Shown here in pieces: positions 12,471-55,227 of a DNA stretch of 64,000 nt (positions are counted from its first letter, which is position 1; each line of letters starts with the position of its first letter). The notes beneath the pieces were generated by a model. It was not told where the DNA came from. It saw only the letters and a list, made by a program, of their open reading frames with translations, and made no database searches. The stretch lies in assembly GCA_017441005.1 (NCBI GenBank), contig JAFSAM010000082.1, positions 8,656 to 72,655 on the forward strand, in the 5' to 3' direction. The stretch is from Clostridia bacterium (GTDB lineage Bacteria > Bacillota > Clostridia > Oscillospirales > CAG-272). The translations under genes were made by a program, and so were the position numbers.

Positions 12471-12499
12471 TTTTCATTTCCCCTATATTATAATGTTTT

Positions 12500-13630: not shown

Positions 13631-13787
13631 AAGCCGGTCCTCCAAAAAAGACATTTCTTCCCTATTTACTATTATAAATATCCTACCACTATTTTACATT
13701 GATTTTTGTTGCTTGTTAATGTAATTATGTATCTTTTTTTAAAACCTGTCTTTCGTTTCCAAATGCGACAAAATCCTTACAAGCTTT

Positions 13788-36669: not shown

Positions 36670-36707
36670 AAAAAAGGGATATGGGCAAATGCCCATATCC
36701 CTTTTTT
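36670..36707. terminator. Terminator at end of GH2 gene
   Basis: AAAAAGGGATATGGGCA-aa-TGCCCATATCCCTTTTT. Confidence 0.85.
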
Positions 36708-39094
36708 TACTTTTCTACTTCTACTTTTATAACAGCCATTCCGAGATCGTCGTTCATTGCATAGAGCTTCATTTCTTTTGGTGTCGGCAATATCGTTAAA
36801 GGTGCCGAAGTCGAGCTTGAAGCAACAGCCTCGCCCTTTGAACGTACTGCAATCGTAATCTTACCCTCATACATCTTTCTTTCGGGAAGTGTTACTTTAT
36901 TGTGGTCGCAGTTATCGGAACCGGTTCCGACAATTTCAAACTCTTCGTTTACAGAAAACTTAACGAAGGGGGATGCATTCGGAACAACAAGTCCGTCTTC
37001 ATCGACACATTCGCAAGTAAACAAGCCAACTTCACTGCCGTCAGCCTTAAATTTAAGATCCTGACGCAATACAAGTCTGTAAGGTTTCTTTGTTGTTTTT
37101 CTTACGTGTTCAACAACATCTTTTCCGCCTTTTCTGCCGATAACCTTGAGTTCACCGGGCTCGTATGCTACGTTCCACTCACCGTGGCCGTATTTTTCAA
37201 TTTCCTGCTTGCCGAGAGAAACGCCGTTCAAGTAAAGCTCAAGCTCTTCACAGTTCGTATAAACTGTTACAACCACCTCTTCGCCCTCAAGCCCCTTTAA
37301 GTTCCAGTGAGGAACAATGTGAGCCATAGGCTCGTCGGTCCAGTGCGAAACGTTTTGATAGAAAGCGCCCTTCTTTTGCAAGAATAAGTCGATAGCTCCC
37401 GACTTTGAGCAAAGCTGAGGCCACACAGCTTCTCCTCTGTGCTCGATACTATCCCACTGATATCCGCCCATGATGTAAGATCTTTCGGTAAAGAACTTCC
37501 AGTTCTTTTCGCGTCCCAAGAACCAATGGTTTGTATCTCTGTCTTTATCTCTAACTCTACCATAGTTATTCGATTCAATAAGCCAATCTCTCGTCGTACC
37601 GGTAGCGCAGTTTTCAGATGAAAGAACGGGCTTGTCGGGATACATTTCGTGAATTTCATCATAAAAACGATGATTGTAGTTAATTGAAATTACATCACAA
37701 TACGGGAATACAGTTGAAAGATGGGGATCGTTTGATTGAGCGCTCGTAATAAATCTTGTATTATCAAGTTTACGAATAAGCGCTGCCATTCTTTTATGAA
37801 TACGAGGACCTTCTGCAGTCTTCTGATAATATTCTTCGTTACCTGTTGACCAGAACACAACCGAAGGTCTGTTTCTGTCGCGCACAACAAGTACACGAAG
37901 CTGCTCAAGGCTTTCTTCCGTCGACTCAAACCATCTTGTTTCGTCGAATACAATCATACCCATTTCATCGAGAAGATCCATTGTTCTTTCACAGTGCATA
38001 TAGTGGCAAAGTCTTACCCCGTTTGAACCCATTTGCTTAATAAGGTCAAGTTTGTATTTTGCAACGTTATCGGGAAGAACAAGACCTGTCAAGCCAAAGT
38101 CTTGGTGCATACAAACGCCCTTTATAAGTACTTTTCTACCGTTAAGAATAAATCCATCCTTTGCATCAACAGCAATAGTACGGAAACCTATTCTTGTGTA
38201 ATCTTCGTCAGAAAGAACACCATCTACATAAACACGGGTTACAACCTTGTAAAGATTAGGTGTTTCTGTATCCCAAATTTTTGGATCGTTTACTTCGGCT
38301 AAATATTTAAGAGTTGTCTTGCTTCTGAATTCTGCTTTACCTTCAGCTTTAGCCGTAGCAACTACTGTTCCGTCAACATCAACAATATCACTTTCAACAG
38401 CAATATTCTTATCTTCGTCATAGTCGTTTACAACTGTTGACTGAAAATCAACTCTCCAAAGTTTATCATTTACCTTTGTTGCAGGTGCATATACACCATA
38501 ACGGTCAAGCGCTACGGGTTCGGTAACAACCAAATTTACATTCCTGTAAATACCTGCGCCCTGATACCACCAACCTTCAAAACGTTTGCCAAATACGTAA
38601 ATAGCAAGTACGTTTTCTCTATCAAAGTAAATATTATCTGTTATATCTACGTCAAATTCGTTAAAAGCTGAAAAGTTATGCTTCATCAAACAACCGTTAA
38701 GATAAATAGTTGCATCACCCGCGATACCACCAAACTGAAGAATAACTCTCTTTCCCTTCCATTCCTGATCAGGTTCAAAGTGCTTTCTGTACCAAGCGTT
38801 ATCATAAATAAAATAACCTGTCGCACAGTTCCCTTCCTCTGTGGGAGTTTGACCTATTATGTAATCGTGAGGAACGTTAACATGCTTCCAGTTACCTGAT
38901 CTCATATCAATGTCTTTGAAGCGATAGTAAGGATTAAATGCATCGTAATAACCGTATGCTGCAGGTCCTGTATGTTTTCTGATAGTCTTTGACTGTGAAT
39001 ATACGGGGCCCTTATCGTCGTTTACCGGATAGTTTACTTCAATATCACCTTTGTGAAACATCCAGCCCTTATTTAATGATATAACCTTGCGCAT
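36707..39094 (-). CDS. GH2 glycoside hydrolase, no signal peptide
   Basis: WWYQGAGIYR, KGVCMHQDFG, RDRNRPSVVFWSTGNEE, HIVPHWN; start MRKVISLN with GAGAGGT. Confidence 0.9.
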   Translation of the reverse strand: MRKVISLNKGWMFHKGDIEVNYPVNDDKGPVYSQSKTIRKHTGPAAYGYYDAFNPYYRFKDIDMRSGNWKHVNVPHDYIIGQTPTEEGNCATGYFIYDNAWYRKHFEPDQEWKGKRVILQFGGIAGDATIYLNGCLMKHNFSAFNEFDVDITDNIYFDRENVLAIYVFGKRFEGWWYQGAGIYRNVNLVVTEPVALDRYGVYAPATKVNDKLWRVDFQSTVVNDYDEDKNIAVESDIVDVDGTVVATAKAEGKAEFRSKTTLKYLAEVNDPKIWDTETPNLYKVVTRVYVDGVLSDEDYTRIGFRTIAVDAKDGFILNGRKVLIKGVCMHQDFGLTGLVLPDNVAKYKLDLIKQMGSNGVRLCHYMHCERTMDLLDEMGMIVFDETRWFESTEESLEQLRVLVVRDRNRPSVVFWSTGNEEYYQKTAEGPRIHKRMAALIRKLDNTRFITSAQSNDPHLSTVFPYCDVISINYNHRFYDEIHEMYPDKPVLSSENCATGTTRDWLIESNNYGRVRDKDRDTNHWFLGREKNWKFFTERSYIMGGYQWDSIEHRGEAVWPQLCSKSGAIDLFLQKKGAFYQNVSHWTDEPMAHIVPHWNLKGLEGEEVVVTVYTNCEELELYLNGVSLGKQEIEKYGHGEWNVAYEPGELKVIGRKGGKDVVEHVRKTTKKPYRLVLRQDLKFKADGSEVGLFTCECVDEDGLVVPNASPFVKFSVNEEFEIVGTGSDNCDHNKVTLPERKMYEGKITIAVRSKGEAVASSSTSAPLTILPTPKEMKLYAMNDDLGMAVIKVEVEK

Positions 39095-39131
39095 AAATAA
39101 TACCTCTCTTTTGTCAGTATATATTTTATTG

Positions 39132-40520
39132 TTAAATCTCAAGTTCTTCCGCCGACATAACGAAGCCGTAATCGGCATATTCGAATATATCGGCTTTTTT
39201 GTCTGTGTTAATTGCAATTACAGTTCTTGAGTTCTGCATACCCGCCAGATGCTGTACAGCACCCGAAATGCCTATCGCAATATATATTTCGGGGGCGATC
39301 ACCTTGCCCGTCAGTCCTATCTGCGTATCGTAGCCTATAAGTCCCCCGTCGACGACCTTACGCGACGAGCCTATCCCCGCACCTATCTTTTCGGCAAAAG
39401 CCTTTACCCTGTCAATACATCCGACAGCTCCGTGGCCGAACGATACGACGATTCTTTCCTTTGTGTCTTCCTCGGTTCTTACCGTCGCCATAACGGGAAG
39501 AGTCAGGCTCTTTATTTTTGCAATAACCTTTCCCGAGAGGGCGGGACGGACCATAAACAGTGTTTCGCCGTCCGTCTCGAGGCTCGTGCAATCGGCACAA
39601 AGTCCGATCCTCAGCCTTGCCGCTACCCTTCCCGCCAACCTTTTGCTTTCGGCATCGGTCGCAAAAAGCACGGCATTCGGCTTTTCTGTAGTGATCCTTT
39701 GAGCGATCTCTTCCTCATCGGCTGAGTCGATGACCGTTATATCGTCGGAAACCGATCTTGCAAACTCAATAGGCTTTTTGCCGACGATCCATACCTTGTC
39801 TATCTTTTTATCTGACGTTTCGGTCTTTTCTGTAGCTAAGACCTCTGTATTCAGCACTCTTTCGATGGTGTCATAAAGCGCATCTTTGTCAAGAAAAACG
39901 CATTTTCTCTTGCCGGACTGATTTTCAAAAGTCTGTATGACCCTTGTAGGCGAGCCGCGAAGTCCGCATTTTTCGGTGTCGGCACCGATATCCTCGGCGT
40001 TCCATATTTCGACCTCCCCCATCTTCGAAAAAAGGCTGGGAAGTCTTAAATCACATATTCTTTCAAACGTGAGAAGCGAAGGTGCTTTTACGGTGCACTC
40101 TCCCTCGCGCCTTGTCATACATTGAGCAGATTCTTCGGTTATGTTTTTTATAGCCATAACCTCGGTCATAAGGCTGTATCCCAATAATTCCGACGTCATA
40201 GGACCCGTCTGTCCGGTATCGCCCTCCATAGTCTGCCTTCCGCAGAAAACGTAGTCGGGAGATAATTTTTTCAGCGCAAGAGACAGCGCATAAGCCGTAG
40301 CCAACGTATCCGCTCCCGCAAAGCGCGTGTCGGAAAGCAGTATTGCCTTTTTTGCACCCAGTCTTGTTAGGCTTTTCAAATAATCAGCCGTCGACGGTAT
40401 GCCCATAGACAACAGAATTACCTCTGCCCCGCCGATCCGCAATGCGCTCTCGTAAGCACTTGCCTCGAACGGGCTCATCTCGCCGTTTCTGCCCTGTCTT
40501 ATACAAACTACTATCTTCAT
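39132..40520 (-). CDS. Fused electron transfer flavoprotein beta/alpha
   Basis: Beta motifs GADTLATA, CGRQTMEGDTGQ, GLRGSPTRV followed in frame by alpha motifs GLCADC, QIGLTG, GISGAVQHLAGM. Confidence 0.9.
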   Translation of the reverse strand: MKIVVCIRQGRNGEMSPFEASAYESALRIGGAEVILLSMGIPSTADYLKSLTRLGAKKAILLSDTRFAGADTLATAYALSLALKKLSPDYVFCGRQTMEGDTGQTGPMTSELLGYSLMTEVMAIKNITEESAQCMTRREGECTVKAPSLLTFERICDLRLPSLFSKMGEVEIWNAEDIGADTEKCGLRGSPTRVIQTFENQSGKRKCVFLDKDALYDTIERVLNTEVLATEKTETSDKKIDKVWIVGKKPIEFARSVSDDITVIDSADEEEIAQRITTEKPNAVLFATDAESKRLAGRVAARLRIGLCADCTSLETDGETLFMVRPALSGKVIAKIKSLTLPVMATVRTEEDTKERIVVSFGHGAVGCIDRVKAFAEKIGAGIGSSRKVVDGGLIGYDTQIGLTGKVIAPEIYIAIGISGAVQHLAGMQNSRTVIAINTDKKADIFEYADYGFVMSAEELEI

Positions 40521-40526
40521 AAGCAC

Positions 40527-41996
40527 TTATCTCTCTCTGTAAATGGGAGCTAATGCATCGTGTATCTTCTTATATTCTTTATATACCTTCTTGTATTTTT
40601 CGGTGTTTTCGGGGTTTGGTACTACCGTATCAACCTCTTTTATACAAACCTTAACAGCTTCTTCGGCACTCTTGAACACACCGCAGGCAATACCTGCAAG
40701 CATTGCCGAGCCGAGCGAGGAATCGGCACTCTCGGTTATGCGAAGCTCGATTCCGAGCATATCGGCGGTTATCTGCGCCCAAAGTCTGCCCTTGCCGCCG
40801 CCTCCGATGAGGGTCGCCTTCTTGTTGTATTCCATTCCGAGCGAGTCAAGATAATTCTTACTGTCAAGAAGTGACAGCGATACGCCCTCGAGCACCGCTC
40901 TTGTAAAATGCGCCTTTGTATGTGTCGATCTTACACCGGTAAAGCTTCCGCAAAGCATAGGATCGGCATAAGGGGTTAGCTCGCCGTTGAGGTGGGGGAG
41001 GAATATCAGTCCCTCGCAGCCGAGAGGTATCTCGGATGCACCTTTGTCAAGCTCCTTGTAGCTTCCGCCGAATGAATCTCTGTACCAGCGATAGCTTGCC
41101 GCCGCAGATTTGGTTGCCGTACCGGGATACCAAAGTCCGCCTGTAATATGCGAGTAGTTTACAAGATGTCTGTCGGGATATGGCTTGTCTGTGATGACAC
41201 AAATCCTGCCCGCCGTCGCAAGCTTGACGGTTATATCGCCCTTGCTTACAGCTCCCGAGGCAAACACCTCCATTACGGTATCTGTCGTTCCGCAAACTAC
41301 GGGAAGTCCCTCGGGAAGTCCAAACCTTTCCTCCGCCTCTTTTGTTACCTTGCCGATGATGTCGGTGGGGGCGACTACTGGAGGAAGCATATCAACGGTT
41401 ATTCCCGCCAAATTGCAAAGCTCTTCGTCCCAAGCCATCTTGTTGCAATCGAAAAGCATACTGCCCTCTGCCTCGATATAGTCGGTGCAGTATACGCCGG
41501 TCAGTGCAAATCTTATATAATCCTTTTCGAAGAATATGTATCTTATTCTCTCAAAGTTGTCTTTTTCGTTTTCATTTAACCACATAAGCTGAGGAAGTGT
41601 CCATATCGTATCGGGCTTGTGGTAGGTCTTTTTGAATATTTCTTCAGCCATCGATGCGTAAACTCTGTCAGCCTGCTCCCTGCTTCTTGTGTCCGTCCAA
41701 TGCATTGCAGGTCTTATGGGGTTATAGTCCTTGTCGCAGACAAGGCTTGTATGTGTGGCAGAATCGATTGCAACACACAACACGTCCTTCATATCTATTC
41801 CGCTTTTTTCGGTGAGTCCCTTTACGTTTTCAGCCAAGGCAAAAAGCCAGTCCTCCGCCTTTTGCTCACAAGCCGCGGGCGTGGGATGGTAGGTAGGATA
41901 TTCAACGTTGTTTTCGGCAACTATTCTGCCGTCAGTATCTATCAGCGTTGCCTTTGTGGAGCCGCCGCCGAAATCTATTCCAAGTAAGTATTTCAT
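40527..41996 (-). CDS. FGGY-family carbohydrate kinase (xylulokinase-like)
   Basis: LLGIDFGG, HWTDTRS, FLPHLNGELTP, RAVLEGV. Confidence 0.9.
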   Translation of the reverse strand: MKYLLGIDFGGGSTKATLIDTDGRIVAENNVEYPTYHPTPAACEQKAEDWLFALAENVKGLTEKSGIDMKDVLCVAIDSATHTSLVCDKDYNPIRPAMHWTDTRSREQADRVYASMAEEIFKKTYHKPDTIWTLPQLMWLNENEKDNFERIRYIFFEKDYIRFALTGVYCTDYIEAEGSMLFDCNKMAWDEELCNLAGITVDMLPPVVAPTDIIGKVTKEAEERFGLPEGLPVVCGTTDTVMEVFASGAVSKGDITVKLATAGRICVITDKPYPDRHLVNYSHITGGLWYPGTATKSAAASYRWYRDSFGGSYKELDKGASEIPLGCEGLIFLPHLNGELTPYADPMLCGSFTGVRSTHTKAHFTRAVLEGVSLSLLDSKNYLDSLGMEYNKKATLIGGGGKGRLWAQITADMLGIELRITESADSSLGSAMLAGIACGVFKSAEEAVKVCIKEVDTVVPNPENTEKYKKVYKEYKKIHDALAPIYRER

Positions 41997-42017
41997 ATTC
42001 TCACCTTAATTCTCACC

Positions 42018-42665
42018 TTAATATTTAAGTTCAAAGTTTGTACCGGAAATGCCGCCGCACACTCCGCGTGCAAGCAATCCCTCGTTGTCATTGTGGCAAA
42101 GTATCCATTTGTTCTTTCTGAAAAGAAAAGCATCGTCTACAGTTTTTTCAAGGGGTACGTTTGTTCCTGTCGGCAAGCATACGACACAGCCGAAGCCTTT
42201 TTCGCTTACCTCGCAAGGACAGAAGTGGAGAGAAGTTGCATAAACCTCGATCACGGTACCCTTCGGAACGTAAAAAGCTCTGAACACCGAGGTGTCAAGC
42301 TTTCCGTCCTCTATCTCATAAGTATGGGCAAGAAACAAAACCAAATCGGTAATCGCTATATTAATCTCGCTTGAAGTATGCCATTCAGCCGCATTCAAAA
42401 AATTGGAATGACCGTAGCAGTACCCCGTCTGCATCGGAAGTGTGCCGAAATATTTATCTTCCAATATCTTCTTGATCATAAGGCACTCAAAAGTAGACTC
42501 GCTTGCAACGTATACCGATCCCTCTTTAGGCAACTCGATTTTTTCCGCTGCTTCAATTATCTCTTTTGCATCAACATTATTGATGATTCTTCCGTAACTT
42601 CTAAACTCTTCGTCTGTTACCGAATAGATTTTATAGTCATTTTTGTTATTTAAAACGTTAAGCAT
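42018..42665 (-). CDS. DUF4867-family cupin-like protein
   Basis: GYCYGH, LNAAEWHTSSEIN, EVYATSLHFCPC, NKWILCH. Confidence 0.75.
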   Translation of the reverse strand: MLNVLNNKNDYKIYSVTDEEFRSYGRIINNVDAKEIIEAAEKIELPKEGSVYVASESTFECLMIKKILEDKYFGTLPMQTGYCYGHSNFLNAAEWHTSSEINIAITDLVLFLAHTYEIEDGKLDTSVFRAFYVPKGTVIEVYATSLHFCPCEVSEKGFGCVVCLPTGTNVPLEKTVDDAFLFRKNKWILCHNDNEGLLARGVCGGISGTNFELKY

Positions 42666-42699
42666 TTTCTTACCTCTGTTTTGTCAAAATGCAAAGACG

Positions 42700-42729
42700 G
42701 AGATATGCGTAAAATCTTACGCATATCTC
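42700..42729 (-). terminator. Intra-operon hairpin (partial terminator or mRNA stabiliser)
   Basis: GAGATATGCGTAA/TTACGCATATCTC 13-bp stem; weak U tail. Confidence 0.55.
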
Positions 42730-42742
42730 TATCTTACAAAAA

Positions 42743-43537
42743 TTATCTGTGTGCGATCCAATCGTGCTCGGGATCGTTGCTTCTGTTAAAGCCCTGGTAG
42801 TCGCCTGCCATAAGCCACAGGAAGTAAGTCTTGTATCCGGGAGTGGATACTGTCGTGTGGAAGCCGTAGGGGAATTCTACGAGTTCATCGTTCTTTACTC
42901 TGTAAGCCTCGTCAATGCTACCGTCGGAGGTGTAGAGACACTGAACGCCAAAGCCCTGCTTAGGCTCGAAGAGGAAGTAGTAGATCTCCTCTGCTATGCA
43001 TTCTGTGGGCATATTGTCCTCGTCGTGCTTGTGAGGGGGGAAACCTGCCCAGTTACCTTCTGTGGTATATGCTTCACCGATGGTAAGTATCTTGGCATTG
43101 GAGTTGCCGTCGATGAGAAAACTGGTCTCTCTCTGGAAAGGAACCTCTCCGAGAAGCTTCAAAACAACGTGATCCTCTCTGAGGACCTGGGGCTCTGTCT
43201 TTTCGGTAACGGGGGTTGCGCAGACAGCGATCTTGATCTTGTCGATAGCCTCGATCACGCACTCCTGCTCTCTCGGCATATAAAAGCTTTCTGCCTTACG
43301 GTTTTCGAAAACAGACATTCTGTTTCCGATGTTTTCCCACTTTTCACCGTTGACCTCAACGTTTACGTGACCCTCAAGCATAATAAACGCAGTTTCTTTG
43401 TCCTCGGTATTGTATGTAAGTCTCTCGCCTGGATCAAGCTCGATTATTCCGAATTCAAGCTTCTTGAGCGAGCATTCGCCGATCTTGCAAAGGGGAGTAT
43501 ATCCCTTCGCGGGCACATAAGTCTTCTTAAAGTTCAT
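42743..43537 (-). CDS. IolB/KduI-family isomerase (5-deoxy-glucuronate isomerase-like)
   Basis: GNWAGFPPHKHD, EEIYYF, PYGFH, YFLWLMAG. Confidence 0.85.
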   Translation of the reverse strand: MNFKKTYVPAKGYTPLCKIGECSLKKLEFGIIELDPGERLTYNTEDKETAFIMLEGHVNVEVNGEKWENIGNRMSVFENRKAESFYMPREQECVIEAIDKIKIAVCATPVTEKTEPQVLREDHVVLKLLGEVPFQRETSFLIDGNSNAKILTIGEAYTTEGNWAGFPPHKHDEDNMPTECIAEEIYYFLFEPKQGFGVQCLYTSDGSIDEAYRVKNDELVEFPYGFHTTVSTPGYKTYFLWLMAGDYQGFNRSNDPEHDWIAHR

Positions 43538-44438
43538 AGCCGTTCTCCTTCAGATATTTTTTTACTGTTTCAAAGTCGGGTACGCTTTCTCTCGCGCCTA
43601 TTCCGGTACATTTAAGTCCCGATACGGCGCTTGAAAAATGACAGCACTTTGTGTAGTCGTATCCGTTTGTTACCGCAAACGCAAACGCACCGTGGAACAC
43701 GTCTCCCGCGCCGTTTGAGTCAACGACCTCTGCGGGATAAATGGGATACGTCGTGAGCTTTTCGCCGTCATACATCACTCCGCCGTTTTTGCCGCAGGTG
43801 ATGACAACGATCTCGGGATTGTATTTGTCATACAACACCTTTGCCGCCTCCTCGGGCGTCTTGCATCCCGTCGCTCCGAGCGAATACTCCTTCGAGGGGA
43901 TCAGTATGTCTACATAAGGCAAAAGTCTTTCGTATCCGGGATAAAGACCGCCTGCATCGTAAAGCACCTTTACACCGTTTTCGCGTGCAAGCTTTGCACC
44001 CTCGATAGCCGCCTCAAGCTCGTTTCCGTCAACCATAAGGAGCTTCGCGTTCTTTATGGCATCCTTCTGTTTCTCGTTAAGCTTGAGAGGGGGCAAATTA
44101 CCTCTGTCGAAAACACAGGTACGGCTTGTTGTTTCGGCACTCAGCCAGATAACCGAAGTGAAGGAGCGATAACCGCTTTCCGTGGTAACAAGCTCATTTG
44201 TCATACCGTATTTTTCGAAATCTGCCTTCAGAAATGCACCGCCGTTATCGTCGGACAATACACCGATGTATCCGCATTTCTGACCTAACTTCGATGCCGC
44301 AACAAGCCCTGTCGCAACGGGACCGCCACCCGCAAGTCGGGTGCTGTCGGCACGAAGCTTTGTATCCTCTTCGGGGTAGCGGGGGACACTCACAAGAGTG
44401 TCCATTACACATGCCCCGATACCTACTATATTAATCAT
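43527..44438 (-). CDS. PfkB-family kinase, YihV/ketohexokinase-like
   Basis: GACVMD, GGGPVATGLVAASKLG, VVDSNGAGDVFHGAF. Confidence 0.88.
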   Translation of the reverse strand: MINIVGIGACVMDTLVSVPRYPEEDTKLRADSTRLAGGGPVATGLVAASKLGQKCGYIGVLSDDNGGAFLKADFEKYGMTNELVTTESGYRSFTSVIWLSAETTSRTCVFDRGNLPPLKLNEKQKDAIKNAKLLMVDGNELEAAIEGAKLARENGVKVLYDAGGLYPGYERLLPYVDILIPSKEYSLGATGCKTPEEAAKVLYDKYNPEIVVITCGKNGGVMYDGEKLTTYPIYPAEVVDSNGAGDVFHGAFAFAVTNGYDYTKCCHFSSAVSGLKCTGIGARESVPDFETVKKYLKENGYEL

Positions 44439-44440
44439 AA

Positions 44441-45283
44441 TTATTCAGCCTTTCCGTCTGCACCGACAAGCTTGATTCTGGAAATGCAGAATTCCTTAAC
44501 TGCTTCGATAGGTCTCTTCATAAACGTATCGACCGCAACCGCTCTGTCGGGTTTTACAGCATCCTCGGCAAGACAATCGATGAAGGCATAGCAGAGGTCG
44601 GTCGCAAAGTTCATCTTTCTGATACCCGCCTTGACTGCCTTCTTGATCTCCTCATCGGGAACGCCCGAGCCGCCGTGGAGCACGAGGGCTGTATTGTTCG
44701 TTGCTTCTCTGATCTCCTTGATCCTCTCGATGTCAAGCTTGGGAGGCTTCTTGTATCTGCCGTGCGCTGTACCTACCGCTACGGCAAGACAGACAACGCC
44801 CGTCTCTTCAACGAAACGCTTTGCATCTGAAGCAGTCGTAAACTCGTCCATGGAATCGTCAGCCGTCGTTCCGACGTGACCGAGCTCGCCCTCTACCTGA
44901 ACGTCAACGTGCTTACAGAAGTCAACGATCTTCTTGGTAAGAGCAATGTTTTCCTCAAAAGGAAGGGTCGAGCCGTCAAGCATAACGCCTGTTGCACCGT
45001 ATCTGATCGAACGTGTCGCCTCAAGCTCGGAGGGACCGTGGTCAAGGTTGAAGCATACGGGAACTGTAGCTCTCTTTGCCGCCGCAAGAATAACGGGAGA
45101 TAAGAAATATCCAGTTTCCTCCTTCATAAGGCGGGGGTATACCTGGAGAATTACTGGGGCTCTCATTTCCTCGGCTGCATGGAGTGCACCGATAACGTTT
45201 TCCATATTGTAAACGTTGAATGCGGGAATGCAATAACCGCCCTTTTCCGCCATATCAAGTATTTCTTTAAGATTAACTAACAT
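44441..45283 (-). CDS. Class II fructose/tagatose-bisphosphate aldolase family
   Basis: PAFNVYN, LDHG, EGELG, GTAHG, LVLHGGSG. Confidence 0.9.
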   Translation of the reverse strand: MLVNLKEILDMAEKGGYCIPAFNVYNMENVIGALHAAEEMRAPVILQVYPRLMKEETGYFLSPVILAAAKRATVPVCFNLDHGPSELEATRSIRYGATGVMLDGSTLPFEENIALTKKIVDFCKHVDVQVEGELGHVGTTADDSMDEFTTASDAKRFVEETGVVCLAVAVGTAHGRYKKPPKLDIERIKEIREATNNTALVLHGGSGVPDEEIKKAVKAGIRKMNFATDLCYAFIDCLAEDAVKPDRAVAVDTFMKRPIEAVKEFCISRIKLVGADGKAE

Positions 45284-45300
45284 TTTTTGTTCTCCCTTTC

Positions 45301-46386
45301 TTATGCAAGGATAAGATCCTCGATCGAAAGAACCTCAACCTCGTTCTGCTCAATGCTCTTGAGGGATACGTATTCGGAAACGCAAGCGGTTACGATAGTG
45401 TTCTGTCCGATGGAGGTCACGTTGTAAAGACGGCGCTCTGCAACCTTCTTCATAACGTCGGGAATGTACTGAGCCATAAGAATGTTACCTGCCCATACGG
45501 TCTCCTTGCGGTTGAGAAGCATTTCGGTAAGGTCTGCATAAGACATTACGACACGTCTTGCCTCTTCTGTCTCTTCAAGGTCACGTGCAAGCTGGAAGGG
45601 ATCCTGGAATACAACGGTCTTGCCCTTGTTTTCTGCTATAAGCTTGCCCGTTGCCAAAAGCTGATCGAGGAATGCTGTATATGTAACTACCTTTGCCTTG
45701 ACCTCAACGCCGTTTTCGCCGTATACTCTCTTGATTGCCTTTGCATCGAAGGGATCGTATACAACTACTGTTTCAAAGCCGTTCATTACCTCTGCCATCT
45801 CAGCCATCTGAGCCTTTGTTTCGTTTGCCGCACCGATGAGGAAGTCGAGCTGTGCGCCCGTTGCCTTTTCATCGAGGGCTACGGTAAATTCAACGTTTGC
45901 CTTTTCAAGCACCTTGATCGCCTTTACTGCCTGGCAGGGTGCCATATATCTTGCATCCGCACCGAGCACGAGAAGTGTATCGGTCTTTGCGGAATGCTCC
46001 TTGATCTTTGCTGTAAGCTCTTCTATAAGCTCTGTCTTGCCGTATGCGTTGCCGCTTTCAAGGCAGTTCATAACGAGCTTCTGAATGTACTCGGGAAGCT
46101 CTCCCTCGAGTGCCGCCTGGAGTCTTACCTCCTTTGTGAACATAACGGGATCCCAGCCTGTTACGCAAACGCTTACACAGCCGCCGCAGCCCGCACATTC
46201 GTATACGTTGTCGATAACCTCACTGAGCTTGATAGCACCTCTGTTTACAAGTGAAAGACCAAGTGCTCTTGCTCTTGCTGTATTTCTTTCAAGACCTGTT
46301 GCATTGCCGATAGGGCAGATGTGATGGCACATCCAGCAGAAACGGCAGGAATCTATATGCTGTTTACTTTTTTCGGATATAATCAT
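45301..46386 (-). CDS. GlcF/GlpC-like 2x[4Fe-4S] protein with degenerate CCG domains
   Basis: CRFCWMCHHICP and CAGCGGCVSVC; FQDPFQLAR where YHDPC is typical. Confidence 0.8.
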   Translation of the reverse strand: MIISEKSKQHIDSCRFCWMCHHICPIGNATGLERNTARARALGLSLVNRGAIKLSEVIDNVYECAGCGGCVSVCVTGWDPVMFTKEVRLQAALEGELPEYIQKLVMNCLESGNAYGKTELIEELTAKIKEHSAKTDTLLVLGADARYMAPCQAVKAIKVLEKANVEFTVALDEKATGAQLDFLIGAANETKAQMAEMAEVMNGFETVVVYDPFDAKAIKRVYGENGVEVKAKVVTYTAFLDQLLATGKLIAENKGKTVVFQDPFQLARDLEETEEARRVVMSYADLTEMLLNRKETVWAGNILMAQYIPDVMKKVAERRLYNVTSIGQNTIVTACVSEYVSLKSIEQNEVEVLSIEDLILA

Positions 46387-46419
46387 TATTCTTTCCTCCT
46401 ATTATCTTTGTTCGGCAAA

Positions 46420-47850
46420 TTAAAGACCCAATTTAAAGGGGTTCATAATGCCATTGGGGTCAAGGCTCTTCTTGAGGCCTTCAAACACCTGCATTGCAGG
46501 TCCGTACTGCTCTTTCATAAGTCTGCCGAGCTTGATGCCTACACCGTGGTGGTCGTTTACAACGCCGCCGTGTGCAAGTGCGGTTCTGACACCGCAGGTC
46601 CAGATCGCCTGGTGAAGTCTCAATGCTTCAACGGGATCCTGAGGAACGTCTTTGCCGTCTACAATGAATCTGTCGTAGATCATTGAGCCCCATTCATACC
46701 AGTGGCTGAAGTGAGCGATAAACTTTGCCTGAGGGAAGTTTGTCTCAATAGCTTCCTTCATTGCCCAGTAGATCTCTTCGATCTTGCCGTAAGGAGCGAT
46801 CGTATCCATTGTACCGAACATCTGAGGAATATCCATCATGTGACCGGGATAGAAGAACGTGATCTTCTCTTCCCACCACTTTTCGCCGTATTCACTGCCA
46901 AGGTCCTCAGCACCGTACTTTGCAAAGGTCTCGAGAAGGATCTTTTCTTCAACCTCTACCATTTCCTTAACACCCTCGTAAGCGATGTTCATGAATGCGC
47001 CCTTGCGCTCAACACCGACGATCTTCTTGATGAGAGATGCCGTTTCTGCCTCGTCATAAAGACGCATAACGGAGGGCTTGAACTTCTGGAGAAGCTCCTT
47101 GGACGCCTTGAATGCACCCGACATATCCTGGAACAGGAAGCCGCGGAATCTTCTTTCCTCGGGCTGATCGTAAATACGCATCTGTGCCTTTGTGATGATA
47201 CCGAGTGTACCCTCGGAGCCGATAAAGATCTGGTTTAAGTCGGGACCTGCCGCATGCTTGGGGGCACTTGCAGTATTGATAATATCACCGTTCGGAAGTA
47301 CAACCTCCATCTGGAGTACCATATCGTCGATCTTGCCGTACTTTGTGGAGCATACGCCGATGCCTCTGTGTGCAAGGAAGCCGCCTACAGTAGAGCAGGT
47401 GAGCGAAGAGGGATAGTGCATAGTTGCCTTGCCTACCTCGTTTGCCGCCCATTCGATGTGCTTGTAAATAGCACCCGTGCCGCACTCGATGTACATTGCG
47501 TCTGTATTTACTTCGTAGATCTTGTTCATTCTCTTTGTGTCAAGCAAGATGCCGCCGCAGACGGGAAGCGCACCGCCCTGTGTGCCGCCGCCGGCACCCC
47601 AAGGTGTTACGGGGAGCTTATAGTAGTTTGCGATCTTCATGACCTTGGATGTCTCCTGTGCATCCTTAGGTGCTACGATGAAATCAGCCTCGGGCATTCT
47701 CTCGCCTCTGTCTGCCCACATTCTGGACAGCCAGTAATAGTCAACGCTGTGTGTAAGCTTGTCGATCTCTCTGATAGAGCAATTTTCGCGACCTACCGCA
47801 TCCTCAAGCTCGGTAAGTATCATTGCATCCAAAAATTTGTTTCTCTGCAT
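46420..47850 (-). CDS. FAD-binding oxidoreductase, VAO/PCMH family, alkyl-DHAP-synthase/YgcU-like
   Basis: HYPSS..STVGG, STKYGKIDDMV, AAGPDL, GSEGTLGIIT, DHHGVG, LDPNGIMNP. Confidence 0.88.
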   Translation of the reverse strand: MQRNKFLDAMILTELEDAVGRENCSIREIDKLTHSVDYYWLSRMWADRGERMPEADFIVAPKDAQETSKVMKIANYYKLPVTPWGAGGGTQGGALPVCGGILLDTKRMNKIYEVNTDAMYIECGTGAIYKHIEWAANEVGKATMHYPSSLTCSTVGGFLAHRGIGVCSTKYGKIDDMVLQMEVVLPNGDIINTASAPKHAAGPDLNQIFIGSEGTLGIITKAQMRIYDQPEERRFRGFLFQDMSGAFKASKELLQKFKPSVMRLYDEAETASLIKKIVGVERKGAFMNIAYEGVKEMVEVEEKILLETFAKYGAEDLGSEYGEKWWEEKITFFYPGHMMDIPQMFGTMDTIAPYGKIEEIYWAMKEAIETNFPQAKFIAHFSHWYEWGSMIYDRFIVDGKDVPQDPVEALRLHQAIWTCGVRTALAHGGVVNDHHGVGIKLGRLMKEQYGPAMQVFEGLKKSLDPNGIMNPFKLGL

Positions 47851-47876
47851 AATTCTTTTCTCCTGTTTATATGTAA

Positions 47877-49286
47877 TTATTTATTTTTTACGGATCTGTC
47901 TACTGTCAGATTGGGTACGAACTTACAGAAGGTTTCGATCTCCTTTGTGTAGTCGCCCTCGATCTCTACAAAGTGGTGAATATAGGGTCCTTCAAGGAGT
48001 CTGTCCTCCCAAGCCTGAAGGTTATCGAACTCGCCCCAGATATAAGTGCCGTGTGTCTGCGGTCCCTTTGCGGTGTTTATTGCACCCGCAAGGATCATAT
48101 AGTTACCGTCATCCTGGTCGAGTCTTGCAACTGTGTACTGACCGTCCTTCGCTCTGAACCATTCTCTTTGGTTTACGAGGCGGGCTGTGCTGTCGGGAGC
48201 TTTGACAGACAGCGGGAAGGGTCCGCAATGCCAGAGGAGCTCGGCATTCTTGTTTTCGGGATGACGCACCGTGAATTCTCCGAGGAAGGGCTTGCCCTCT
48301 CCGAGAGATGCGGCTCTGAGCATGACCATCGTCATTGCGCAGTGCATATCGCTTTCACAGCTGATGGTGTATCCGAGATCGTTGAGCACACCGTATACGG
48401 CACAGGGAGCAAGGCCGTCGAACAGCTGAGGTGTCGCCGTCCAGCACTCTGCCGAAATAACGTCGAGCTTGAATTCCTCGAAAATGCCTATATATGTAAC
48501 TACCAGACAAGCCATTCTCTCAAGATATGCGGGAGTCAGGTCGTCCATCTGATAATTGTCTTTGAAATACTGAATATACTTTGCGATCTCTTCCTTCTTG
48601 CTCTCCATTGCCGCATTGAAGCGATCCTGAAGTATTGCAAGGTTAATGGGGATGATACGGAGTCCGAACTTGGACATAAGCTCGCCCTCGTTCCATATTA
48701 CCGAATAGAAGGGTGCGGGACGGATACCGACCTGACCGATCCTCAGTCCGTCGAAATTCTTAAGCATACAAGCAACTCTCACAAGGCTTGTAAAGCTTTC
48801 GGCAAACGTATCCTCCTCTACTCTGCAGCAGGGGATGTGCGCAAAAGGAATATGGTATCTCTGGAGCTGACGGGAGAGTCCGAAAAGTCCGCACTGTGAG
48901 TCGGTGGGTCTCATTCCGTCTACGTAATATTCGTCATCGAGGGGTGCCCAGATGAATAAAGGCTTTCCGACCTTTCTTGCAAGGTCTGCGGCTGCCTCCT
49001 CGTTACCGAAGTTTGCGTTTATTATAAGTACGGCATCAACGCCTGCCTCGGTAAAACGCTTTGCTGCGGCATCTACCGAATCGTCATCAAAAATAAGATC
49101 GTTGCAGCCGAGTCCCTTTGTATCAACAAAGGTCACTTTATCGGTGGTGAAGTTCTTTTCGATATACTCTACGTTCTTCTTACCTCTTTCCTCGGCGGAG
49201 ACCCAGGTCAAAAAGGTCTTTGCAGGACGCGGAGTGGTATTTCTTCTCATGGGACAAAGTCCGATCTTTACATTGTAATTCAGCAT
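47877..49286 (-). CDS. L-fucose/L-arabinose isomerase-like protein
   Basis: NFGNE, DSQCG, ECW, CESD, HCGPFP, GPYIHH; start MLNYNV with AGGAGG. Confidence 0.82.
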   Translation of the reverse strand: MLNYNVKIGLCPMRRNTTPRPAKTFLTWVSAEERGKKNVEYIEKNFTTDKVTFVDTKGLGCNDLIFDDDSVDAAAKRFTEAGVDAVLIINANFGNEEAAADLARKVGKPLFIWAPLDDEYYVDGMRPTDSQCGLFGLSRQLQRYHIPFAHIPCCRVEEDTFAESFTSLVRVACMLKNFDGLRIGQVGIRPAPFYSVIWNEGELMSKFGLRIIPINLAILQDRFNAAMESKKEEIAKYIQYFKDNYQMDDLTPAYLERMACLVVTYIGIFEEFKLDVISAECWTATPQLFDGLAPCAVYGVLNDLGYTISCESDMHCAMTMVMLRAASLGEGKPFLGEFTVRHPENKNAELLWHCGPFPLSVKAPDSTARLVNQREWFRAKDGQYTVARLDQDDGNYMILAGAINTAKGPQTHGTYIWGEFDNLQAWEDRLLEGPYIHHFVEIEGDYTKEIETFCKFVPNLTVDRSVKNK

Positions 49287-49297
49287 ATATATCCTCC

Positions 49298-49312
49298 TGA
49301 AAAATATTTTCA
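49298..49312. promoter_or_regulatory. Candidate RpiR operator 1
   Basis: Palindrome TGAAAAATATTTTCA between minus-strand promoter (TTGACA 49348-53, TACAAT 49324-29) and RBS. Confidence 0.65.
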
Positions 49313-49380
49313 TTCCAAATTATATTGTACTACTTTTTTGTGATATGTGTCAACATTTTTCAGAACTTTTTTTCGTTTAA

Positions 49381-49426
49381 TTGACTTTTTTTCGTATCTA
49401 TGATAGAATAGTGAAAATAATTTCCA
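49381..49426 (+). promoter_or_regulatory. rpiR sigmaA promoter with candidate operator 2
   Basis: TTGACT-N17-TAGAAT, then TGAAAATAATTTCCA at 49412-49426. Confidence 0.6.
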
Positions 49427-49440
49427 AAGCGAGGTCCGAA

Positions 49441-50280
49441 ATGGAATCTGTGATGCATAAAATCAGATCTGCCTACGACGAAATGGGGCGGAGCGAAAAA
49501 AGAATTGCCGACTATATGATAAAAAATCCGCAAAAGCTCATCGGTCTTTCCATAAGTGAGCTTGCGCAAAGCTGCGGAAGCGGTGACGCTACGGTAGTAA
49601 GATTTGCCAGAAGACTCGGTTTTTCGGGATATCAGGAGCTGAAGCTTCGCCTGGCATCCGAATTCAACTCCACATCAGCTCTCGACAACACCATCGAAAA
49701 GACAGACTCCTGCTACGATATATTTATAAAAAGGATAAACGACATTTCGGTCTCGCTCAAAAATACCGAGTCCGTGCTCGACACCGAGCAGCTCGATATG
49801 GCGGCAAAAAAAATCATGCAGGCAGGAAGGATAGTCATCTTTGGGCTGGGTAACTCGGCGGCGGTGGCTATGGATGCCTCGCACAAGTTTCTCAGGATCG
49901 GGCTTAACGCACAGGCGATCTGCGACAATCACATGCAATCGATAGTCGCCTCCCACCTCGATGAAAATACGGTTGTAATCGGCGTTTCGCACTCGGGCAG
50001 CTCAAAAGATATCGTCGAAGCAATGCAACTTGCAAAAACAAAAAATGCCACCACAATATGCGTTACAAACTACGGTAACTCGCCCATTCTCGCGGTTTCC
50101 GACATACGTCTTTTTACCCAGGCGGAAGAAACGAAGAGGTCTATTCTCGCAATGAGTTCACGAATCGCCCAGCTTGCAATTTTCGACGCTATCTATTCAT
50201 ACATTGTAATAAATCAAGACAAGCAATCGCTCAGCGCGATCTACAACACGGAAACGGCACTCAAAAACAAGAAATACTGA
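49441..50280 (+). CDS. RpiR/MurR-family regulator (HTH plus SIS)
   Basis: SEKRIADY, ATVVRFARRLGFSGYQELK, FGLGNS, SHSGSS. Confidence 0.92.
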   Translation: MESVMHKIRSAYDEMGRSEKRIADYMIKNPQKLIGLSISELAQSCGSGDATVVRFARRLGFSGYQELKLRLASEFNSTSALDNTIEKTDSCYDIFIKRINDISVSLKNTESVLDTEQLDMAAKKIMQAGRIVIFGLGNSAAVAMDASHKFLRIGLNAQAICDNHMQSIVASHLDENTVVIGVSHSGSSKDIVEAMQLAKTKNATTICVTNYGNSPILAVSDIRLFTQAEETKRSILAMSSRIAQLAIFDAIYSYIVINQDKQSLSAIYNTETALKNKKY

Positions 50281-50287
50281 TAACAAC

Positions 50288-50324
50288 AAAAATGGCGGAC
50301 ACCGAGAAAGTGTCCGCCGTTTTT
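50288..50324. terminator. Bidirectional terminator
   Basis: AAAATGGCGGACAC...GTGTCCGCCGTTTTT. Confidence 0.8.
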
Positions 50325-50341
50325 GTTGTTTTTAATCAATT

Positions 50342-53300: not shown

Positions 53301-53518
53301 ATAGGATAAAGCGGATCGTCCGCAGAGGTTCCCATTCCGCCCGGCTTTGCGCTGTCGCTTATATAGATAGCATATTCATCTTTTTCAATATCAAAGATAT
53401 TGGTAGGTGCATCAGCAAAGGTATCATTCTGTGTCTCGCCGTCACTTGAGTCGGAGCAACCGACAACCATACCAAAAACCAACAGCACCATTGTTAAAAG
53501 TAATATCGCTTTTTTCAT
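50342..53518 (-). CDS. Large multidomain lipoprotein with probable NlpC/P60-like Cys-His domain
   Basis: Lipobox VVGC; Gly/Asn-rich beta-repeat region; GIPY...GNDC...LQPGD...HVRIV pattern. Confidence 0.7.
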   Translation of the reverse strand: MKKAILLLTMVLLVFGMVVGCSDSSDGETQNDTFADAPTNIFDIEKDEYAIYISDSAKPGGMGTSADDPLYPIIHPDNELEPQTLEQTQSDGSKKSVTIYSYYKNTALYQAVEKLSETGGTVVICGDYTICEDDARHSNYYSVMEYHLPETKCPVTITSVYGDEDYRSKARLKLSGYVHTILNGPTVWENMKIYTNLATDRVICCNGNETVFGEGLECTRAKSDSESYYLSIAGGERYKSTNKNVNITVKSGTFYKLLGTTWTNPGSESISNCNVNIKLEGGTVSNIYGNTRNAAPNAIHQGNVDIQITGGTLTGSIACTGAGGFKSESNAVNVKISGGIFSPNFKIMSRNANSTKTGVESKNVTVDLGGANDVNKTHLSTMVGKLADGTSVVYPSGWITENRTVKETPAVKYVFCGEELSAKGSVVEVEYKNPVLNNQKFTQTVEYDKNPESFSVKCDTSAEGTVKAEYYFGDWKYHEADVKVLKVPTVTFKGVQVKADSDKQTVYAWGGYADEEYTDVTIKECGIISAPQDLLKSDEPFTHSNTFGLCDVVSDGKCKDDSDILFGAVVIDTDIVRENNYDKNYSFRAYVKVECDGQEQYLYSDVVSGSLYDIAKTAVEGNVEADETKAILEEKVISVHENYDPTYLYDPAGAEAARKQVVDYMYKMSNIEWTPKETFILYNEGTYNQYSVSTGSTKMYAVFYAGKTYHGIPYVNKTLTQHETFLDMIDRTDIVPLDKPNLVFNRNNGTSDFDKLTPAQKEAGLQNAKNFPGNDCWGGMIYGWNTVINSRPETKGLINIDNMLTLDYGTVKVGDYEIDERYIVKDRNNTKAVVAKIDKMVMAEAYAKLQPGDATAHSTQIYNDAQQKYTSNARHVRIVSSVEVVRKANNQIDLNASKVNFIHQAGGATSVYIYNENDRSLKEVSYTFRQLMEEGSLPISIPELMTGLVDTPTAIVSGAHLDETLPYKTLSGIVKSNKHMMSVRAVFSQNGQVVGERKEITSPTYGTVQLSEYTISGIDLSEITLNSGENYTFDLYACIAGMDGEEIHLVKGYEFTAK

Positions 53519-55216: not shown

Positions 55217-55227
55217 CTGAATATACC

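Follow-up and report, generated by a model that had tools for sequence, protein, structure and literature searches.

What does a bacterium break down with a ten-gene set in which two sugar isomerases, two sugar kinases and an aldolase stand beside a flavoenzyme, an iron-sulfur (FeS) protein and an electron-transferring flavoprotein (ETF)? The genes lie on the minus strand of a 64,000-nucleotide stretch of a Clostridia bacterium (assembly GCA_017441005.1, contig JAFSAM010000082.1, positions 8,656 to 72,655), here called the window, and the original prediction, made from the sequence alone, described them as a tight operon divergent from rpiR and matching no known pathway. Our analysis indicates that they very probably make up one operon for carbohydrate breakdown in which one step is linked to the ETF, and the explanation that fits them best overall, which we consider probable, is an isomerase-kinase-aldolase sugar route with a flavoenzyme/ETF redox step. 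Each of the protein families is known, and there are partial precedents for their combination; what would be new is the ETF-coupled step in isomerase-kinase-aldolase sugar catabolism. No paper that describes the gene combination or assigns a function to it was found in a literature search outside of which most subscription journals fall, so that a prior description is possible; so far as the searched literature reaches, the claim that no known pathway matches is upheld, and the route has probably not appeared in print.

The ten co-oriented open reading frames fill positions 36707-49313 with almost no spacing and diverge from rpiR, just where the original prediction had placed them. Counted from the isomerase gene, isoF, the gaps between consecutive genes are 26, 33, 17, 2, -11 (an overlap), 77, 21 and 0 nucleotides, followed by 37 nucleotides between the ETF gene and the gene of a family 2 glycoside hydrolase (GH2), given the GH2 start at ATG 39094. 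This start most likely applies instead of the TTG at 39217 proposed earlier, and isoF most likely starts at 49286 (MLNYN...) instead of 49313. The start of rpiR is most likely ATG 49442, with TTG 49381 forming the -35 box of its own promoter-like site. A hairpin search of the operon found no internal terminator comparable in strength with the one at its end. Co-orientation, gaps of -11 to 77 nucleotides, one strong promoter-like site and one terminator argue that the ten genes form one transcription unit. The family assignments of the original prediction proved right in Pfam and NCBIfam searches and, for the isomerase, by AlphaFold modeling and Foldseek comparison (Table 1).

Table 1 Predicted features of the operon and its regulator, with window positions, and number of the 49 related loci in which tblastn found each protein
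Feature	Position	Strand	Basis or remark	Present in loci (of 49)
Terminator-like hairpin, operon end	36670..36707		17 pairs and T run
GH2 glycosidase, GalA-like, last operon gene	36707..39094	-	GH2 domains	4 (in operon in 3: L001, L002, L011)
Fused EtfB-EtfA ETF	39132..40526	-	PF01012 and PF00766	48
FGGY kinase, xylulokinase-like	40527..41996	-	TIGR01312	49
DUF4867 cupin metalloprotein, SftX/SqvB family	42018..42665	-	PF16161, 237.9 bits	29
IolB/KduI-family cupin isomerase	42743..43537	-	PF04962, 241 bits; 11-nucleotide overlap with pfkB stop	49
PfkB sugar kinase, ribokinase/YihV/ketohexokinase/IolC-like group	43527..44438	-	PF00294	48
Class II ketose-phosphate aldolase, FBA/TBP/IolJ family	44441..45283	-	PF01116 (F_bP_aldolase), 295 bits	48
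EtfD-like soluble FeS protein, two CxxCxxCxxxC motifs	45301..46386	-	Fer4_8	49
AGPS/YgcU-like FAD enzyme, VAO family	46420..47850	-	PF01565 and PF02913
isoF, aldose-ketose isomerase, L-arabinose/L-fucose isomerase fold	47877..49286	-	AlphaFold model and Foldseek	42
Candidate RpiR operator, palindrome TGAAAAATATTTTCA	49298..49312		Between operon -10 box and first start codon
Operon promoter-like site TTGACA-18-TACAAT	49324..49353	-	11 of 12 consensus match; precedes first gene
rpiR promoter-like site TTGACT-17-TAGAAT, TG before -10	49381..49409	+	Consensus match
Candidate RpiR operator, palindrome TGAAAATAATTTCCA	49412..49426		Just past rpiR -10 box
rpiR, RpiR/MurR-family regulator	49442..50280	+	Pfam HTH_6 89 bits, SIS 82 bits
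Terminator-like hairpin after rpiR	50283..50329		Hairpin search

The gene set is not peculiar to this genome. A scan of one genome per species returned at least 560 relatives of the operon's flavin adenine dinucleotide (FAD) enzyme, and the best 80 loci, which were examined, are all 90-98% identical in this protein; nearly all belong to uncultured Clostridia that live in the gut, caecum, colon or rumen of people and herbivores. The core operon is thereby placed in at least 80 species at 90% FAD-enzyme identity or more. The proteins of the window were sought by tblastn in these loci and counted in 49 of them, all of different species, in which the sequence reaches 1.6 kb or more upstream and 9 kb or more downstream of the FAD gene, the carriers being mostly metagenome-assembled genomes (MAGs) of unestablished completeness. 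In 47 of the 49, a seven-gene core (FAD enzyme, FeS protein, aldolase, PfkB kinase, IolB, FGGY kinase, ETF) lies on one strand and in one order; the genes, for which the original prediction had allowed that they might not occur together elsewhere, are therefore conserved together across species. Compared with the window proteins, the FAD enzyme has a median identity of 92%, IolB of 83%, the ETF of 55% and most others of 65-70%, and third codon positions are 35-53% identical across the operon genes. For the FAD enzyme, 92% identity of the protein as against 53% at third codon positions points to purifying selection and not to recent transfer. The cluster thus appears to be old, with its FAD enzyme under unusually strong purifying selection, and to judge from these comparisons the operon is widespread and strongly constrained. 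Across species the FAD enzyme remains 90-98% identical while neighboring operon proteins are 46-85% identical and third codon positions are near saturation; close relatives of the enzyme (83-85% identical) are also labeled Bacilli and Thermoguttaceae. An orthologue occurs in 7 of 201 genomes drawn evenly from one order, and among 400 genomes drawn evenly from the phylum, 4 hold orthologues (58-86% identity) and 8 hold members of a sister clade (31-36%), the remaining matches being GlcD-like and scoring at most 190 bits. Carrier genomes of about 1.0-3.2 Mb devote 10-12 kb to the operon.

What sets the operon apart is its redox module. The best matches of the FAD enzyme in the PDB are alkyldihydroxyacetonephosphate synthases (AGPS; 148.9 and 132.1 bits), then LDHD (127 bits), glycolate oxidase and LctD, and E. 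coli YgcU (29% identity, 187 bits) is closer than these solved relatives, which bears out the AGPS/YgcU likeness originally noted. Against the GlcD model TIGR00387 the enzyme scores 187.6 versus a cut-off of 567.9. Its NDHHGVG segment aligns with SHHHGVG of AGPS and TGEHGIG of LDHD, so that two of the three histidines of the AGPS loop are kept and the first is replaced by Asp, and it also keeps the Arg and Tyr that are mutated in the AGPS entries 4bc7 and 4bca. Compared with its best solved relative, AGPS (PDB 2uuu, 4bby), the enzyme differs in this Asp, in having an ETF partner and in missing the N-terminal region, the alignments beginning at AGPS residue 132 (2uuu) or 203 (4bby) and query residue 49-50. 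In 2-hydroxyacid dehydrogenases of the VAO family a Glu-His pair holds metal and substrate, and its absence from the FAD enzyme speaks for a substrate that resembles dihydroxyacetone phosphate (DHAP) and against one of the lactate or glycolate type. AGPS is not known to perform net electron transfer; the ETF partnership of the FAD enzyme, in contrast, implies one, and the enzyme is probably the dehydrogenase of the redox module. Members of its protein cluster, all MAG-derived, are named FAD-binding oxidoreductase or alkyldihydroxyacetonephosphate synthase only, and longer proteins with a part resembling the FAD enzyme occur only among distant relatives (27-41% identity).

The FeS protein, called no more than an Fe-S protein in the original prediction, is more specifically predicted to be an EtfD-like partner of the ETF. 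It has 361 residues with eight invariant cysteines (14, 17, 20, 24, 64, 67, 70 and 74), and its sole real sequence match in the PDB is mycobacterial EtfD (9ojn), which is also the best Foldseek match of its AlphaFold model (pLDDT 89.5; M. smegmatis EtfD, E 1.8e-13, TMq 0.76), ahead of LutA and HdrB. EtfD is described (PMC8593149, PMC13083937) as an iron-sulfur protein that reoxidizes ETF, an oxidoreductase of the membrane by which ETF is connected with the respiratory chain. The FeS protein differs from it in size, since 742 residues are modeled in 9ojn and 1042 are present in the deposited chain, and in having only two 4Fe-4S motifs and neither a membrane domain nor the CCG cysteines; a Pfam search found Fer4 domains only and no CCG domain, which is present instead in the distant variants L117 and L124. 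The protein thus appears to be soluble, without a membrane part, in which case quinone cannot be the acceptor. The ETF is a single chain of 464 residues with ETF and ETF_alpha halves. Its EtfB half scores 91.5-101.1 bits against CarD, 4kpu_B, 7koe_A, LctB and 5ol2_B, among which are chains of the bifurcating ETFs from CarCDE, Acidaminococcus, LctBCD and C. difficile, versus 38.5 bits against Paracoccus 1efp_B, and its EtfA half scores 113.9 bits against LctC. No second homologue of the ETF, FAD enzyme, FeS protein, isoF, IolB or DUF4867 was found in the genome by tblastn, and as there is no other ETF, this one would be dedicated to the operon.

Two known systems share part of this module. LctBCD of Acetobacterium woodii (PDB 7qh2) likewise combines an FAD dehydrogenase of the VAO family with a bifurcating-type ETF, and LctC and LctB are among the best relatives of the ETF halves; here, however, the dehydrogenase is AGPS/YgcU-like without the E-H motif, the ETF is a single fused chain, and an EtfD-like FeS protein is encoded in addition. 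The E. coli ygc locus (ygcE, ygcU, ygcQR, ygcNO, ygcP), to which the original prediction drew a parallel, indeed unites in one locus a YgcU-type FAD enzyme (29% identity), the FGGY kinase YgcE (25%) and an ETF. It differs in its split ETF, FixC/FixX-like partners, SDR enzyme and MFS carriers and in having no isomerases, PfkB kinase or aldolase, and it also holds a GlpP-like antiterminator. No functional study of the ygcU locus was found in the literature searched, most subscription journals again lying outside the search.

The remaining enzymes belong to sugar families. Over its 469 residues isoF has no Pfam family at E ≤ 0.001 and no PDB sequence match, and its sole NCBIfam match, weak yet whole-length, is SftI (NF048012; 92.7 bits versus a cut-off of 700). 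The AlphaFold model, built on 31 homologues (pLDDT 88.7), predicts the three-domain AraA/FucI fold: Foldseek aligns it with probability 1.00 to L-arabinose isomerases (TM 0.79-0.81) and L-fucose isomerases (TM 0.71-0.76), and the corresponding cluster in the protein atlas is named L-fucose/L-arabinose isomerase family. Residues E311, E337, H353 and H437 are invariant in the 31 homologues, and by their spacing may correspond to the AraA metal ligands. The FGGY kinase just reaches the xylulokinase model TIGR01312 (380.6 versus a cut-off of 380.25) and scores 237.8 for gntK, 154 for GlpK, and 188.6 and 181.9 bits against xylulokinases in the PDB. DUF4867 matches 9gyy with 185.7 bits and keeps the E-x-H-x3-E and His positions of the metal-ligand list in PMC11968277; the same paper reports a network analysis in which the largest DUF4867 cluster (434 of 557 sequences) lies beside FucI-family and FGGY genes, as well as FGGY-DUF4867 fusions.

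The aldolase exceeds the cut-off of the ketose-bisphosphate aldolase subfamily (TIGR00167, 249.3 versus 215.6) and has a paralogue of 59% identity elsewhere in the genome. For the PfkB kinase, scores are 127.8 for ribokinase, 95.8 for IolC_N (TIGR04382, cut-off 300) and 43.7 for the 1-PFK/LacC group (TIGR03168), and its best PDB match is sulfofructose kinase (7ag6, 102.7 bits), in agreement with the YihV likeness originally proposed. IolB clears the cut-off of the 5-deoxy-glucuronate isomerase equivalog (TIGR04378, 227.8 versus 205; 122.7 bits to PDB 2qjv), and in some loci its homologue is only 37-40% identical. These three genes recall the lower myo-inositol module IolB-IolC-IolJ of the Bacillus subtilis type, in which an equivalog-level IolB likewise stands beside a PfkB kinase and a class II aldolase with the same logic, from aldehyde to hydroxy-ketone to phosphate ester and on to DHAP plus an aldehyde. 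Here, however, the kinase falls far below the IolC cut-off, and the operon adds the AraA/FucI-fold isomerase, the FGGY kinase and the FAD/FeS/ETF set. Profile searches of the host genome, which is 94.35% complete, also gave no match for iolD (TIGR04377) and only 30 bits for iolE (TIGR04379, cut-off 290), confirming the absence of both as originally stated.

Control of the operon was attributed by the original prediction to RpiR, with two operator palindromes. Two near-palindromes of the form TGAAAA-N3-TTTTCA do lie in the 155-nucleotide spacer, each directly downstream of one -10 box; they were found by a script that allows one mismatch, an inverted-repeat search of the spacer with a seed of 6 having given none. 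Comparison was extended to 65 related loci of at least 12 kb, in which regulators were typed by clustering and representatives of both clusters checked with Pfam: the gene upstream of the operon belongs to the RpiR cluster in 33 and to an AraC cluster in 24 of them. When two mismatches at most are allowed, the motif occurs in the regulator-operon spacer of 26 of the 27 scorable RpiR-type loci versus 3 of 19 AraC-type loci, which serve as the internal control, and 13 RpiR-type spacers hold two copies, mostly 51-53 nucleotides apart. Motif presence tracks regulator type. The operon is thus probably repressed by the divergent RpiR/SIS regulator, which would bind both palindromes, and the attribution holds for the operon's own lineage; it does not extend to the operon in general, since the AraC-type regulators show that the pathway as such is not tied to RpiR control. 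The NCBIfam scores of the RpiR protein (PRK11337 192.6, AlsR 190.7) both stay below cut-off.

Related loci also differ in what accompanies the core. By clustering, in which only representatives were annotated, an aldose 1-epimerase gene lies inside the operon in 15 of the 65 loci, an AEC-family carrier in 12, a pair of a NagA equivalog and a NagB-like gene in 6, and a PF12831 flavoprotein in 2, whereas no glycoside hydrolase and no ABC or phosphotransferase-system carrier recurs among the related loci; a GH31 gene is near only one of them, upstream of L019. The distant variant L116 (71% identical) has genes for an AraC regulator, a NagA-like protein, an IolG-family oxidoreductase, a NagB-like protein and a xylose-isomerase-like TIM barrel upstream, and a PF12831 protein in place of the ETF. 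In L117 (58% identical), RpiR, the FAD enzyme, a CCG FeS protein, a glycerol-dehydrogenase-family enzyme, a TRAP carrier, a TIM barrel and IolB are found, with no kinases nearby. The tightest trio is that of FAD enzyme, FeS protein and IolB.

The sister clade of the FAD enzyme (31-36% identical) was seen at eight loci, L118-L125, in genomes G104, G243, G320, G013, G019, G371, G268 and G209. There the gene of a CCG iron-sulfur protein follows the FAD gene, and in 5 of the 8 loci this protein adjoins, or is fused to, a DAO+BFD protein resembling glycerol-3-phosphate dehydrogenase, together with Pyr_redox_2 and DUF1667. Four of the 8 also encode a DAGK/YegS lipid kinase, and one encodes GlpK. The sister clade may represent an independent bacterial system, either of the AGPS type or for glycerol phosphate.

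IolB-type and AraA/FucI-type enzymes turn aldehydes into hydroxy-ketones, and class II aldolases split phosphate esters into DHAP and an aldehyde. Taken together with the likeness of the PfkB kinase, this chemistry suggests a route in the style of the Fuc, Rha, sulfo-EMP and IolBCJ pathways to which a second kinase and an AGPS/YgcU-like dehydrogenase have been added. On our best reading the substrate would be an aldose in free form or else a polyol or acid related to it, and candidates are an arabino- or galacto-configured or otherwise modified aldose, the matching alditol and a sugar acid. Entry as a free aldose is suggested by the AraA/FucI fold, by the aldose 1-epimerase of 15 loci and by DUF4867 with its kept metal ligands. 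The aldose would be opened and isomerized to the 2-ketose by the AraA/FucI-fold isomerase, the IolB-type cupin or both, with help from aldose 1-epimerase and DUF4867 in some species. The PfkB kinase, which scores higher against YihV, ribokinase, ketohexokinase and IolC than against the LacC/FruK group and on this ground would be a kinase of free keto-sugars, would then phosphorylate the CH2OH adjoining the keto group, and the aldolase would yield DHAP and a second fragment. The product of the xylulokinase-like FGGY kinase would be a phosphorylated intermediate, either a keto compound or a polyol, one end of which resembles DHAP. On this product the flavoenzyme would carry out a single redox step, and the fused bifurcating-type ETF together with the EtfD-like 2x[4Fe-4S] protein would mediate its electron exchange with nicotinamide adenine dinucleotide (NAD(H)) and ferredoxin. 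In three contexts (the present operon, E. coli ygc and the sister clade) this flavoenzyme clade is paired with an FGGY kinase and triose- or polyol-phosphate metabolism, which is why the FGGY product is placed before the flavoenzyme. Both halves of the sugar would end as triose-level phosphates.

In the original prediction the sugar was one released by the GH2 enzyme. Our data do not lend support to this part: the GH2 gene stands in the operon in only 3 of the 49 loci, which marks it as a lineage-specific add-on and not as part of the pathway core, and it would feed a glycoside into the route in its own lineage only. The enzyme scores 672.8 against the GalA beta-galactosidase model, below the cut-off of 900, and its placement inside the cell comes only from a reading of its N-terminus, MRKVISLNKGWMFHKGD.

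The gene identities, their conservation and the operator motif are results of the analysis. How the steps follow one another, which way the redox reaction runs and what the substrate is are what we infer from them, and the exact order given above is tentative, being more apt to be rearranged than to stand as written. Several points weigh against the route as proposed. We found no single order that the chemistry would force upon the two isomerases, the two kinases, the aldolase and the redox step, and the link between the module of isoF, DUF4867 and FGGY kinase and that of IolB, PfkB kinase and aldolase is conjectural. Of the 49 loci, 7 lack isoF and 20 lack DUF4867, so that both possibly represent a side entry; the aldolase may instead be an epimerase or have a bisphosphate as its substrate; the ETF is assigned to the bifurcating kind by similarity scores; and the distant variants L116 and L117 do without an ETF. 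NagA/NagB-like genes (in four main loci and L116) and the AEC or TRAP carriers of variant loci hint at an amino-sugar or acidic substrate that a simple aldose model does not explain. The window contains no transporter, and a genome-wide search for the operator (50 sites with at most one mismatch, 3 of them exact) led to no convincing sugar transporter; the intergenic candidates adjoin a nucleoside phosphorylase/PAP2 pair, a DUF6873 gene and a Pot-like ABC system. We are more doubtful than confident about a further proposal, that the AGPS-type flavoenzyme performs chemistry new to sugar metabolism on a phospho-keto sugar that ends like DHAP, wired through the EtfD-like protein and the bifurcating ETF to NAD(H) and ferredoxin; within it, an oxidation and a reductive or hydrolytic removal of a substituent at the carbon adjoining the keto group are both possibilities.

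Other arrangements of the same enzymes deserve comparison. All five core activities fall into one line if the FGGY kinase phosphorylates an alditol, the FAD enzyme and ETF oxidize the alditol phosphate, IolB isomerizes the product, the PfkB kinase adds a second phosphate and the aldolase splits the ketose bisphosphate into two triose phosphates, with isoF and a mutarotase feeding in the aldose. Such a polyol route agrees with the aldolase subfamily score, with the recurrence of the kinase and FAD enzyme as a pair in E. coli ygc, where a GlpP-like antiterminator is also found, with the genes resembling GlpK or glycerol-3-phosphate dehydrogenase near the sister clade in 5 of 8 loci, and with the loci that lack isoF. 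We nevertheless think it unlikely, as the PfkB kinase scores poorly against the ketose-6-phosphate 1-kinase group (TIGR03168), the aldose 1-epimerase of 15 loci favors a free aldose, known polyol-phosphate dehydrogenases use NAD with no IolB step being required, and the sister-clade context could equally be that of lipid or AGPS-type chemistry, given its DAGK/YegS kinase. If isoF instead makes L-ribulose, which the XylB-like FGGY kinase phosphorylates while other genes replace AraD or cleave the pentulose, the operon would be an alternative pathway for L-arabinose or another pentose. The fold of isoF is indeed closest to L-arabinose isomerase, the FGGY kinase sits at the xylulokinase cut-off, and profile searches of the host genome found neither XylA nor AraA (AraA_N gave no match). 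Among 47 carriers (the 42 other carriers surveyed and 5 further ones) strong canonical AraA_N occurs in none, versus 21 of the 194 non-carriers of the order sample (Fisher p 0.017, uncorrected for kinship), although the contrast is weak with AraA in only about a tenth of the order, and XylA shows no clear contrast (4 of 47 versus 35 of 194, p 0.13). A pentose needs only one kinase, however, isoF is not in all loci, and IolB, the PfkB kinase and the redox module are left without a sound role, which makes this pathway improbable.

The lower myo-inositol module invites a reading in which IolB, an IolC and an IolJ act on 5-deoxy-glucuronate or a close deoxy-uronate that comes from a new upstream route, the FAD/ETF set there replacing IolG, IolE and IolD. 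It would account for the equivalog-level IolB and its adjacency to, and overlap with, the PfkB kinase and aldolase genes, for the IolG-family oxidoreductase and xylose-isomerase-like TIM barrel upstream in L116, and for the AEC and TRAP carriers of variants, which suit an acid; yet iolD is missing and iolE scores far below cut-off in the nearly complete genome, the PfkB kinase attains 95.8 of the 300 bits for IolC, Pfam finds no malonate-semialdehyde dehydrogenase in the operon, and some IolB homologues are divergent, at the identities given above. There is slim probability in this, and equally little in the view that the genes form a mosaic of independent modules that are merely co-transcribed (isomerase, DUF4867 and FGGY kinase; IolB, PfkB kinase and aldolase; an ETF-linked dehydrogenase for redox balance). 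Each such module has a precedent, namely DUF4867 with FucI-family and FGGY genes (in the relevant part of PMC11968277), IolBCJ, and YgcU with ETF, while isoF and DUF4867 are variably present and accessory genes are inserted between the modules. Against this, the seven core genes stay ordered together in 47 of 49 species despite saturated third codon positions, one regulator and one promoter serve all genes, and no other ETF exists in the genome for a general redox role. Finally, the operon shares clustered SftI, SftX (DUF4867, its metal site kept), YihV and class II aldolase families with the sulfoglycolysis sets (sulfo-EMP/EMP2, sulfo-SFT), and might thus be a sulfo-EMP-like variant that serves sulfoquinovose or some different glucose analogue with an anionic C6, for instance a hexuronate. 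SftI is the only curated match of isoF, DUF4867 is SftX (PMC11968277 and PMC7491151, in the parts that name it), the best solved relative of the PfkB kinase is sulfofructose kinase, and sulfo-EMP2 uses PF02952 and PF01116 proteins according to the pertinent part of PMC11968277; with regard to hexuronate, the host has UxaC, and Eda, UxuA and altronate dehydratase were not found in its genome at the stated completeness. isoF is remote from SftI, however, the flavoenzyme and ETF are additions, Pfam detects no GH31 sulfoquinovosidase, sulfolactaldehyde reductase or dehydrogenase, or sulfonate exporter domain in the operon proteins, and among the other carriers Eda is present in 36 of 42 and UxaC in 32 of 42, often adjacent, so that the classical hexuronate route is already owned. 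We regard this variant as very improbable, and continue to favor the isomerase-kinase-aldolase route with an ETF-linked redox step.

Several common substrates become unlikely on the gene content of the carriers. myo-Inositol is argued against by the absence of iolD and of a true iolE from the 94.35%-complete host genome, and plain hexuronate is rejected as a general substrate in view of the Eda and UxaC counts. Rhamnose is unlikely, the host having equivalogs or near-equivalogs of rhaB, rhaA, rhaD and fucO, and so is galactose, as GalT is present beside a weak GalK-like gene (136 bits versus a cut-off of 226.65). Sulfoquinovose is likewise unlikely, given the lack of a GH31 enzyme, a sulfolactaldehyde enzyme and an exporter in the operon.

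Identifying the substrate would assign a function to DUF4867 and to the bacterial YgcU/AGPS-like clade, including the E. coli ygc locus, would add a new class of ETF-dependent dehydrogenase and would close a gap in models of fiber fermentation; the RpiR operator offers a handle for reporter screens. Should the flavoenzyme chemistry prove new, hundreds of fiber-associated gut and rumen Clostridia species would possess an energy-conserving route, absent from textbooks, for an abundant plant or modified sugar.

Elsewhere in the same genome, two clusters contain related families. One (C46:18776-24116; L131, L132) encodes UxaC, two GFO/IDH/MocA oxidoreductases, a xylose-isomerase-like TIM barrel and an AraC regulator and resembles an unusual cluster for a uronate or keto-acid; the closest relative, G401, is also without Eda. 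The other (C46:1455-7533; L131) comprises a DeoR regulator, SIS, TIM-like, UPF0047 and YhcH/YiaL (DUF386) proteins and a NagA-like amidohydrolase, followed by ceramidase-like genes, and includes a second xylulokinase-like FGGY kinase (350 bits, below cut-off). Within the window, a canonical NagB/NagA pair and a DegT-family aminotransferase, unrelated to the operon, lie at 11715-13654 and 8574-9893 on the minus strand, and the pair shows that the host already has the standard enzymes for N-acetylglucosamine-6-phosphate. Next to the operon, an ECF-type sigma factor domain (residues 1-175) with a C-terminal extension of about 380 residues of no known family is encoded at 34574-36232 on the plus strand; beyond rpiR, the minus strand encodes a protein of 1058 residues without a Pfam or NCBIfam family (50342-53518) and a transglutaminase-core protein with a type I dockerin (53645-55276), which suggests a cellulosome-like surface system.

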